The position numbers were made by a program, and so were the translations under genes. Under the pieces are notes generated by a model. It did no database searches. It was not told the DNA's origin and saw only the letters and a program-made list of their open reading frames with translations. Source: Escherichia coli (GTDB taxonomy: Bacteria; Pseudomonadota; Gammaproteobacteria; Enterobacterales; Enterobacteriaceae). Taken from it: a DNA stretch of 64,000 nucleotides. Location: the NCBI RefSeq assembly GCF_050920415.1, contig NZ_CP169309.1; one strand, given 5' to 3'. This document shows positions 6,264 to 6,835 of the stretch, one piece after another. The first letter of the stretch is position 1, and each line of letters opens with the position of its first letter.

Positions 6264-6835
6264 AGGGTGAATTCCTTTTCATGATCCCGATACGTTAACT
6301 GTTACGGCGTAATCATCCTTTTTATGAATGATTCGAGTGGAAAATATACGCAATATAAATTTATAAGAGACTTTTTCTATTAATTGTTGTATTAATTGGT
6401 AGTGCGAATATGACATTAAATGTCAGACAATTTCAGATTGTAGCCAATAATATTAATCGCGCGGATTTTAATTATCGATGTCAATCAATGTCAAATGTTT
6501 CACCGGATGAAAACACCGACCAGGAGAAATATTAATATTCAGCATGGTGATGTTTTCTTGGGAAGTGTGTGATGCTGAGCGATTAATATAAATAATTAAT
6601 GGCTGTTACAGGCATTAATATGTATTAATTCATTGTTATCGCTTATATATCACTTTCTTATTCCATACCATAATTTCAGAATTTAGCCTGTAATATGCGC
6701 TTCAAAGAGCCGGTGAGATGGAAGCAATAGTGATAAGAATGTTAAAGACATTCGTATCTGGTAGCAGGCTCCTGCATGTGCCAGCAGGAGCGAGTAAATC
6801 GTAAGAGGCTGTGATTACAGCGGTGAGACAGGTAC

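Follow-up and report, generated by a model that had tools for sequence, protein, structure and literature searches.

The trimeric autotransporters SadA, UpaG and EhaG have attracted study as adhesins, as vaccine antigens and as scaffolds for surface display. Grin et al. 2013 defined the SadB family and the Salmonella sadBA operon, whose position between the mtl and lld operons is conserved and which strains such as K-12 have lost by deletion (PMC3953254). The native promoter of sadBA and the conditions that induce it were stated to be unknown (PMC3953254). Laboratory cultures do not express SadA (PMC9927257), and the native conditions for its expression are given as unknown in both reports (PMC3953254, PMC9927257).

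For the Escherichia coli members of this group, published work points to the nucleoid protein H-NS. PMC5012682, citing Totsika 2012, lists UpaG among the H-NS-repressed autotransporters, and PMC12525524, citing the same study, states that deletion of hns derepresses upaG; upaG and ehaG are both reported as H-NS-repressed. The idea that H-NS acts at this locus is thus already published in outline. We found no mapped transcription start for any allele in the accessible literature. Neither the precise promoter nor the invariant distal element presented below is described in the accessible literature; Totsika 2012 may map the promoter.

The yibL-sadB gap and its relatives

The window analyzed here is a 64-kb stretch of E. 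coli DNA, and the region under study, positions 6264 to 6835 (572 bp), is the exact gap between the stop codon of yibL (6836-6838, minus strand) and the ATG of a sadB-like gene (6263-6261, minus strand). The upstream neighbor yibL (6836-7198, minus strand) encodes a YibL family ribosome-associated protein according to the annotation of a 100% identical locus (L001). On the other side, and on the same strand, lies the first gene of the operon, which encodes a 227-residue DUF3251 inner-membrane lipoprotein of the SadB type (5580-6263, minus strand). It is followed by a gene for a YadA-like trimeric autotransporter (TAA) of 1,658 residues (560-5536), with lldP next. A reading of this DNA made from the letters alone, hereafter the sequence-only reading, had placed the gap upstream of a lipoprotein-adhesin operon, and the gene content confirms that assignment.

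Among 5,426 complete genomes, the gap is matched at 100% identity by E. coli MFDS1022581 only, whose identical locus is annotated yibL, DUF3251 lipoprotein, YadA-like protein and lldP. A further 27 genomes bring the number at ≥95% identity to 28 of the 5,426. Alleles 60-80% identical to the gap occur in about 1,850 genomes; 1,873 E. coli genomes align over at least 80% of the gap at 60-80% identity. CFT073, with its adhesin annotated upaG, and O157:H7 Xuzhou21, with its adhesin annotated ehaG, share the gene order mtlR-yibT-yibL-gap-sadB-TAA-lldP. An identical order is found in Salmonella, E. fergusonii, E. albertii, E. marmotae, E. ruysiae and two Pseudocitrobacter species. A scan of the genome collection for more distant outgroups returned six loci only. 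Because more distant relatives of SadB (below about 45% identity) stand alone, with no adhesin gene beside them, we take the gap to be confined to Escherichia, Salmonella and Pseudocitrobacter.

The regions upstream of upaG and ehaG are the closest described relatives. They too consist of yibL, an AT-rich gap of 557-572 bp (GC 0.33-0.36), a DUF3251 gene, a TAA gene and lldP. Both share with the present gap a TTGACA-18-TA(A/G)AAT site and, 183-187 bp upstream of it, an ATTCTGAAA element. Globally, the present allele is 80% identical to the CFT073 gap, and the O157 gap is essentially unalignable with it outside the conserved islands. These two are the experimentally studied alleles; their distance from the present one counts against extending the H-NS results to it, although both share its promoter and distal element. 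The Salmonella sadBA region (PMC3953254) has the same gene pair at the same chromosomal position, a TTGACA-17-TAGCAT site and a distal AATCTGAAAA 180 bp upstream. It differs in having a gap of 526 bp that is about 40% identical to the present one, a discriminator that is not GC-rich and its own insertion with a Fur-box-like sequence. Judged by gene order and homology, the gap in the window is the positional orthologue of the yibL-sadB spacer upstream of upaG (CFT073), ehaG (O157:H7) and sadBA (Salmonella). It is a rare, divergent allele of the known upaG/ehaG/sadBA-type promoter region.

Predicted promoter and leader

Eighteen alleles of the gap, drawn from Escherichia, Salmonella and Pseudocitrobacter, were compared, all read in the direction of transcription. 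Their lengths range from 489 to 572 bp and their GC contents from 0.29 to 0.36. Identity to the gap in the window is 63-80% within the E. coli-type alleles and 40-54% for the other genera and species, and the O157 allele is essentially unalignable. In a 16-sequence alignment mean column conservation is 0.51, and a few short islands rise above it. A nine-taxon alignment has a mean column identity of 55% and 31 invariant columns. Two elements are common to all 18 alleles, namely a predicted sigma-70 promoter and a distal element.

The predicted promoter, P1, lies on the minus strand with a -35 hexamer TTGACA at 6494-6489 and a -10 hexamer TAAAAT at 6470-6465, separated by an 18-bp spacer and followed by the GC-rich discriminator CCGCGCG (6464-6458). 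It is the sole match in the region to 11 of the 12 sigma-70 consensus positions, a score reached by 3.6% of shuffled gaps. Its hexamers and spacing are kept in all 18 alleles as TTTGAC(A/T), a spacer of 17-18 bp and TAnnAT, and the columns TTTGAC and ATTA..AT show no change among the nine taxa. In Salmonella, O157 and E. fergusonii, the homologous site ranks first or joint first among promoter-like sites. P1 shows two hallmarks of a sigma-70 promoter, near-consensus hexamers at a spacing of 16-18 bp and conservation in orthologous regions. These results agree with the expectation of the sequence-only reading that the operon promoter lies in the gap, and they narrow the likely adhesin-operon promoter to about 30 bp.

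From P1, transcription is predicted to start near 6458 and to yield a leader of about 195 nt; the distance from the -35 hexamer to the ATG is 194-239 bp among the alleles. At about +34 to +48 the present allele carries the palindrome TGACATT-T-AATGTCA (6411-6425, minus strand), whose underlying block ACATTTAATAACA (island 6423-6411) is conserved. An inverted repeat AATCAT-N11-ATGATT (6311-6333, minus strand) is kept in the Escherichia alleles and appears as a local hairpin in the RNA fold. The leader closes with a ribosome-binding block, GTATCGGGATCATGAAAAGGAATTCACCCT (6264-6292, minus strand; Shine-Dalgarno AAGGA at 6277-6273), which is nearly invariant among the Escherichia alleles and has divergent flanks. 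Upstream of P1, the 16-sequence conservation scan revealed two minor islands on the minus strand within 6531-6558, ATAAAACATCA (6558-6548) and ATGAATATTAAT (6542-6531), at about -100 to -75.

A distal element conserved in all alleles

Within the distal element, GGCTAAATTCTGAAAT (6673-6688, minus strand), the core A[AT]TC[CT]GAAA occupies 6682-6674, which corresponds to about -225 to -217 relative to the predicted start. All 18 alleles carry the element at a position 172-187 bp upstream of the -35 hexamer, and its distance to yibL varies among them from 91 to 153 bp. The 9-bp core accounts for 7 of the 31 invariant columns of the nine-taxon alignment. An alignment-free k-mer test recovered ATTCTGAAA, with at most one mismatch, in all other taxa at a nearly constant distance from the sadB ATG; shuffled controls yielded 0-1 such k-mers. 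This element has survived in every lineage while its surroundings changed by 20-60%, and it offers a concrete target for mutagenesis and DNA-affinity work.

Several identities for the distal element were tried and set aside. Local alignment scores against the 3′ end of yibL equal those of shuffles in all alleles, and a relic duplication of that end was rejected. By-eye comparison with the consensuses of sigma-E, sigma-54, sigma-32 and sigma-S promoters, of the RfaH ops element and of IHF, Fis, Cra, DeoR, Lrp, MarA/SoxS, CpxR, ArgR, SdiA and CsgD sites gave none that fits the 18 versions. The closest textual match is the Gram-positive CodY box, AATTTTCWGAAAATT (PMC5966866, PMC10415144), with which the version of the element in CFT073-type alleles, TAAATTCTGAAAATC, agrees at 11 of 15 positions by manual count. 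To our knowledge, CodY is not encoded by Enterobacteriaceae; we take the likeness as coincidental.

From the conservation and the fixed spacing of the distal element, and from these only, we propose that it is a candidate docking site for a conserved regulator that counteracts silencing. A more specific suggestion, which we offer tentatively and would not yet favor over its negation, is that the element may be the operator of an anti-silencer or activator encoded in the core genome, which would set the natural inducing condition of the SadA, UpaG and EhaG adhesins across three genera.

Base composition and proposed silencing by H-NS

The GC content of the gap is 35.7%, against 50.5% for the 64-kb window. 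By segment it is 0.31 (6264-6500), 0.36 (6501-6600), 0.31 (6601-6700) and 0.47 (6701-6835), with 0.32 over the AT-rich core, 6264-6700. The description of the gap as strongly AT-rich in the sequence-only reading thus holds for the whole (GC 0.357) and above all for the core, but not for the 90-135 bp or so next to yibL (GC 0.47 over the 135 bp), which hold the yibL 3′ hairpins described below and not control sequence of the adhesin operon. Windows of 572 bp that are equally AT-rich make up 4.7% of the 64 kb, which contains three other AT-rich islands. GC stays below 0.45 from about 5400 to 6750, so that the AT-rich tract continues into sadB (about 1.3 kb), and TpA steps in the gap occur at twice the density of the window.

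Finer signatures of H-NS binding are less distinct. The gap contains 7 A/T tracts of at least 4 bp, compared with 7.3-7.7 in dinucleotide shuffles, and AA/TT periodicity at 10-11 bp exceeds that of shuffles at p of about 0.04-0.06. Intrinsic curvature of the gap is accordingly marginal, and the earlier impression of curved-looking DNA is only weakly supported. The H-NS high-affinity 10-mer (tCGATAAATT-like) has two matches at 8 of 10 positions, one of them inside the promoter spacer (TCGATAATTA, 6478-6469); shuffles average 1.76, and the gap therefore shows no excess of this motif over shuffles. Because the motif matches equal the shuffle expectation and the curvature is marginal, the case for H-NS rests on composition. 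The extended AT-rich tract seen at H-NS-silenced genes is present and spans the promoter, with GC 0.32 over 6264-6700 against 0.505 for the window.

H-NS acts as a xenogeneic silencer of AT-rich promoters, as at proU, bgl and the Salmonella pathogenicity islands. Silencing of this general kind (Navarre 2006, as cited in PMC3212961) is matched here by a tract some 15-19 GC points below the genome average over the promoter and first gene, by TpA richness and by a gene that is silent in culture. Unlike the generic case, the sadB locus is syntenic across three genera and is not a recent insertion, and the gap has neither a significant nucleation motif nor strong curvature. The sequence-only reading had invoked H-NS binding at horizontally acquired adhesin genes. 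Because the locus occupies the same mtlR-yibT-yibL / lldP position in Escherichia, Salmonella and Pseudocitrobacter, the label 'horizontally acquired' is not supported. On the whole that reading was largely right, and already in print in outline.

We consider it likely that the gap serves the sadB-TAA adhesin operon, which is transcribed from the minus strand, as its cis-regulatory region, and that it combines a sigma-70 promoter silenced by H-NS with a distal candidate docking site. Anatomy, composition and conservation were observed directly in the sequences, derepression upon loss of hns comes from the literature on orthologous alleles, and we infer the start site, the occupancy of this allele by H-NS and the role of the distal element. 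In the direction of transcription, the region opens with 70-90 bp or so from the 3′ part of yibL, which contain two hairpins (6821-6768), and continues with an AT-rich tract of about 480 bp that runs on into sadB. Within this tract a single conserved sigma-70 promoter (-35 at 6494-6489, -10 at 6470-6465, GC-rich discriminator, predicted start at about 6458) would direct a leader of about 195 nt ending in the strongly conserved Shine-Dalgarno block. H-NS would keep the promoter silent under laboratory conditions by coating its flanks, which are rich in AT and TpA. Expression would then require either the loss of H-NS or a counter-silencing factor. The best candidate docking site for such a factor would be the distal element (ATTCTGAAAT, 6682-6673), which in every lineage lies some 180 bp upstream of the -35 hexamer.

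FNR-like and Fur-like boxes

We think it unlikely that the operon is silent mainly for want of a specific activator, and not because of H-NS, with the distal element and the other conserved islands serving as sites of an oxygen- or iron-responsive regulator (such as FNR or Fur). Such an explanation would start from the FNR-like box TTGATTGACATCGA (6488-6475, minus strand), which matches 9 of 10 positions of TTGAT-N4-ATCAA and overlaps the P1 spacer. Its center lies at -23.5 from the predicted P1 start and at -41.5 from position 6440, where a class II promoter driven by the box through an alternative -10 hexamer, TATTAT at 6452-6447, would start. The TATTAT hexamer is not conserved, and no other allele reaches 9 of 10 at the position of the box. 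A 13/14 Fur box occurs in Salmonella only, where it precedes the -35 hexamer. The FNR-like and Fur-like boxes are thus each limited to one lineage.

Expression data from Salmonella can be read in two ways. STM3690 (sadB) is listed as Fnr- and Fur-dependent, and it is down 4.2-fold in a fur mutant in which hns is up 3.1-fold (PMC3212961). The authors of that study hold that H-NS-repressed genes fall because hns rises, and the Fur effect on STM3690 is explicable indirectly in the same way (PMC3212961). Moreover, dependence on an activator is compatible with H-NS silencing and does not constitute an alternative to it. The lineage-specific FNR-like and Fur boxes may explain the reported Fnr and Fur effects; neither is general.

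A proximal copy of the distal element

A copy of the distal element, GGCTACAATCTGAAAT, lies just downstream of the predicted start (6430-6445, minus strand; about +14 to +29). The two are parts of a 25-nt direct repeat (6429-6453 and 6672-6696) whose copies are 84% identical and 243 bp apart, and which forms the top direct-repeat family in the region. This arrangement recalls a repressor that binds two operators, at about -225 and +20, and holds the promoter in a repression loop, as LldR does at lldP; for the sadB gap we regard such a mechanism as distinctly improbable. The similarity of the copies exceeds that of all 300 shuffles in the present allele and reaches p of about 0.003-0.02 in E. 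albertii, L005 and P. corydidari, and their spacing is 229-243 bp in alleles with a recognizable proximal copy. However, the pairing is significant in these four alleles only. It falls short of significance in Salmonella, P. vendiensis, E. marmotae and several E. coli alleles, and the proximal copy is deleted in the E. ruysiae-type alleles. Since the proximal copy is missing in some lineages, the two-operator model is weakened.

Spacing and sequence co-variation bear on the same question. Distances from the distal element to the -35 hexamer fall into two clusters, 172-173 and 180-187 bp, about one helical turn apart. Within the main group they spread over about 0.7 of a helical turn, so that helical phasing is not preserved, and we found phasing unconvincing as a property of this distance. 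The distal and proximal copies show no co-variation within taxa in excess of that between taxa.

At the adjacent lldPRD promoter, LldR exerts its control through two operators (window positions 216-232 and 342-358). As in that system, upstream and downstream copies of one motif bracket the promoter of sadB. Unlike in that system, the motif of the sadB gap is unrelated to AATTGGnnnnnCCAATT and the proximal copy is not universal. A weak LldR/PdhR-like box with two mismatches, AATTGGTAGTGCGAATA (6394-6410), is present in the sadB leader; about four such two-mismatch matches are expected by chance in 64 kb, and we rejected it as an LldR/PdhR operator.

Coding potential and RNA structure

Mechanical translation of the gap yields ORFs of 45 residues (6279-6416, minus strand) and 41 residues (6410-6535, plus strand). 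In other alleles the DNA under both is read in other frames or is interrupted, and no ORF in the gap is kept in frame between alleles. Because the conserved DNA under the ORFs behaves in this way, the region is considered non-coding, and a conserved small ORF was rejected. A search of the gap against Rfam gave no match at E≤10, and the leader folds no better than its shuffles (z = +1.0); a structured leader, a riboswitch and a known small RNA were set aside on these two results. As far as ORF-frame and Rfam tests can tell, the gap is non-coding, which upholds the claim in the sequence-only reading of about 570 bp without a plausible ORF.

Could the conserved islands instead belong to a hidden, unannotated gene, whose product would be a small RNA or small protein? 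For an intergenic region of E. coli the gap is long, and plus-strand ORFs of 41-55 residues overlap the conserved promoter block in three alleles. Beyond the shifting frames, the absence of Rfam matches and the unremarkable leader fold, the islands are short and separated by unalignable sequence, and we judge such a gene very improbable.

RNA folding also places two hairpins in the yibL 3′ region. Hairpin 1 (GCTGT-AATC-ACAGC; 6808-6821, minus strand) has both arms changed, to GTTGT and ACAAC, in allele L010. Hairpin 2 (GCTCCTGC, a loop of 8 and GCAGGAGC; 6768-6791, minus strand) lies in a segment, 6740-6840, that folds at z = -2.0. It is invariant in 7 of 8 aligned E. coli-type alleles, with one change in the 3′ arm in L002, and P. 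vendiensis keeps it with a different loop. Megablast matches that cover only 6765-6900 correspond to a divergent allele that keeps the hairpin. No U-run follows hairpin 2, so it is probably a 3′-end or stability structure of yibL and not a canonical terminator. A terminator scan of the region gave no terminator-like site, and since no intrinsic terminator is seen after yibL, read-through from yibL could contribute to the transcription of sadB.

Features specific to this allele

In addition to the FNR-like box, three features set the present allele apart from those upstream of upaG and ehaG. The first is a 25-bp palindrome, ATTAATGGCTGT-A-ACAGGCATTAAT (6595-6619), specific to this allele. The second is a set of eight ATTAAT hexamers, to which the palindrome contributes, against 0-3 in the other alleles. 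The third is a 12-bp tandem duplication on the minus strand at 6378-6401 (6378-6389 and 6390-6401; TATTAATTGTTG and TATTAATTGGTA as read on the plus strand).

Many E. coli adhesins are phase-variable and the region holds several inverted repeats, but a switch by Dam/OxyR- or Lrp-type methylation or by an invertible element, as at agn43, pap and fim, is exceedingly improbable here: the sole GATC of the gap (6283) is allele-specific, the promoter-flanking inverted repeats are only 73-79% complementary and not conserved, no recombinase gene is adjacent, and a single orientation is found in all 1,880 genomes.

The run that the sequence-only reading quoted as an example of the AT-rich sequence, ttaattgttgtattaattgg, is the tandem duplication at 6378-6401, which appears as a 12-column gap in every other aligned allele.

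Recurrent inactivation of the sadBA locus

The sadBA locus is inactivated recurrently. An IS1 element lies within the yibL-sadB intergenic region of strain SF-166, where it adjoins a sadB pseudogene, and in strain 24AR0376 IS1 abuts yibL, at the place where sadBA is expected. In the window, at approximately 12617-15881, yibH is apparently interrupted by an IS21-family element, with istA/istB-like ORFs at 13297-15262; at the corresponding place in the near-identical strain MFDS1022581, ISEc62 is annotated. Over the 15.9 kb compared, ungapped identity between the window and the MFDS1022581 locus is only 98.8%, a figure that may reflect an indel.

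Allele-specific sequences in the yibL-sadB gap

The intergenic allele of the window contains eight ATTAAT hexamers (6379-6629), whereas mononucleotide shuffles predict 0.67 and each of 15 other alleles has zero to three. Two of the eight derive from a 12-bp duplication and two more from a 25-bp palindrome. In the O157:H7 allele, unlike the others, the conserved distal element continues into AAAATGCATTTT, a perfect palindrome of 12 bp. The Salmonella allele carries TGATCATAATTATCA approximately 50 bp upstream of the -35 hexamer of the predicted sadB promoter, within an insertion specific to Salmonella. This sequence matches the 7-1-7 Fur consensus at 13 of 14 positions and is different from the site predicted for STM3690, the Salmonella sadB (PMC3212961).

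Two contigs (L009 and L012) whose labels assign them to Oscillospiraceae and Collinsella metagenome-assembled genomes possess E. coli yibL-sadB sequence, of a type identical to the E. coli alleles, and are most likely mis-binned.

Operon surroundings and the wider window

Homologues of SadB with 36-42% identity occur at two comparison loci (L023 and L024) as stand-alone lipoprotein genes adjoining an amidohydrolase gene, with no autotransporter gene alongside; the SadB fold is therefore also found without an adhesin context. Three further AT-rich islands of the window, at 15.9-17.0 kb, 18.2-19.6 kb, and 24.0-25.0 kb, have GC contents down to 0.30-0.34, equal to or below that of the 6264-6835 gap. 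An Rfam match to STnc150 in the yibL-yibT spacer (7267-7468) is weak, with 15 bits where the gathering score is 60 (E = 3), and is almost certainly due to chance.

On the far side of the adhesin gene, two copies of the palindrome AATTGGnnnnnCCAATT lie upstream of lldP at 216-232 and 342-358, which we take to be the LldR operators O2 and O1. A weaker look-alike of these operators in the sadB leader (6394-6410) bears two mismatches and represents no more than chance expectation. The interval that separates the adhesin stop codon from the lldP promoter contains GC-rich REP-like palindromes (…gatgcgctacgcttatcagacctac… / …ggataaggcgttcacgccgcatccggc…) at approximately 443-530.
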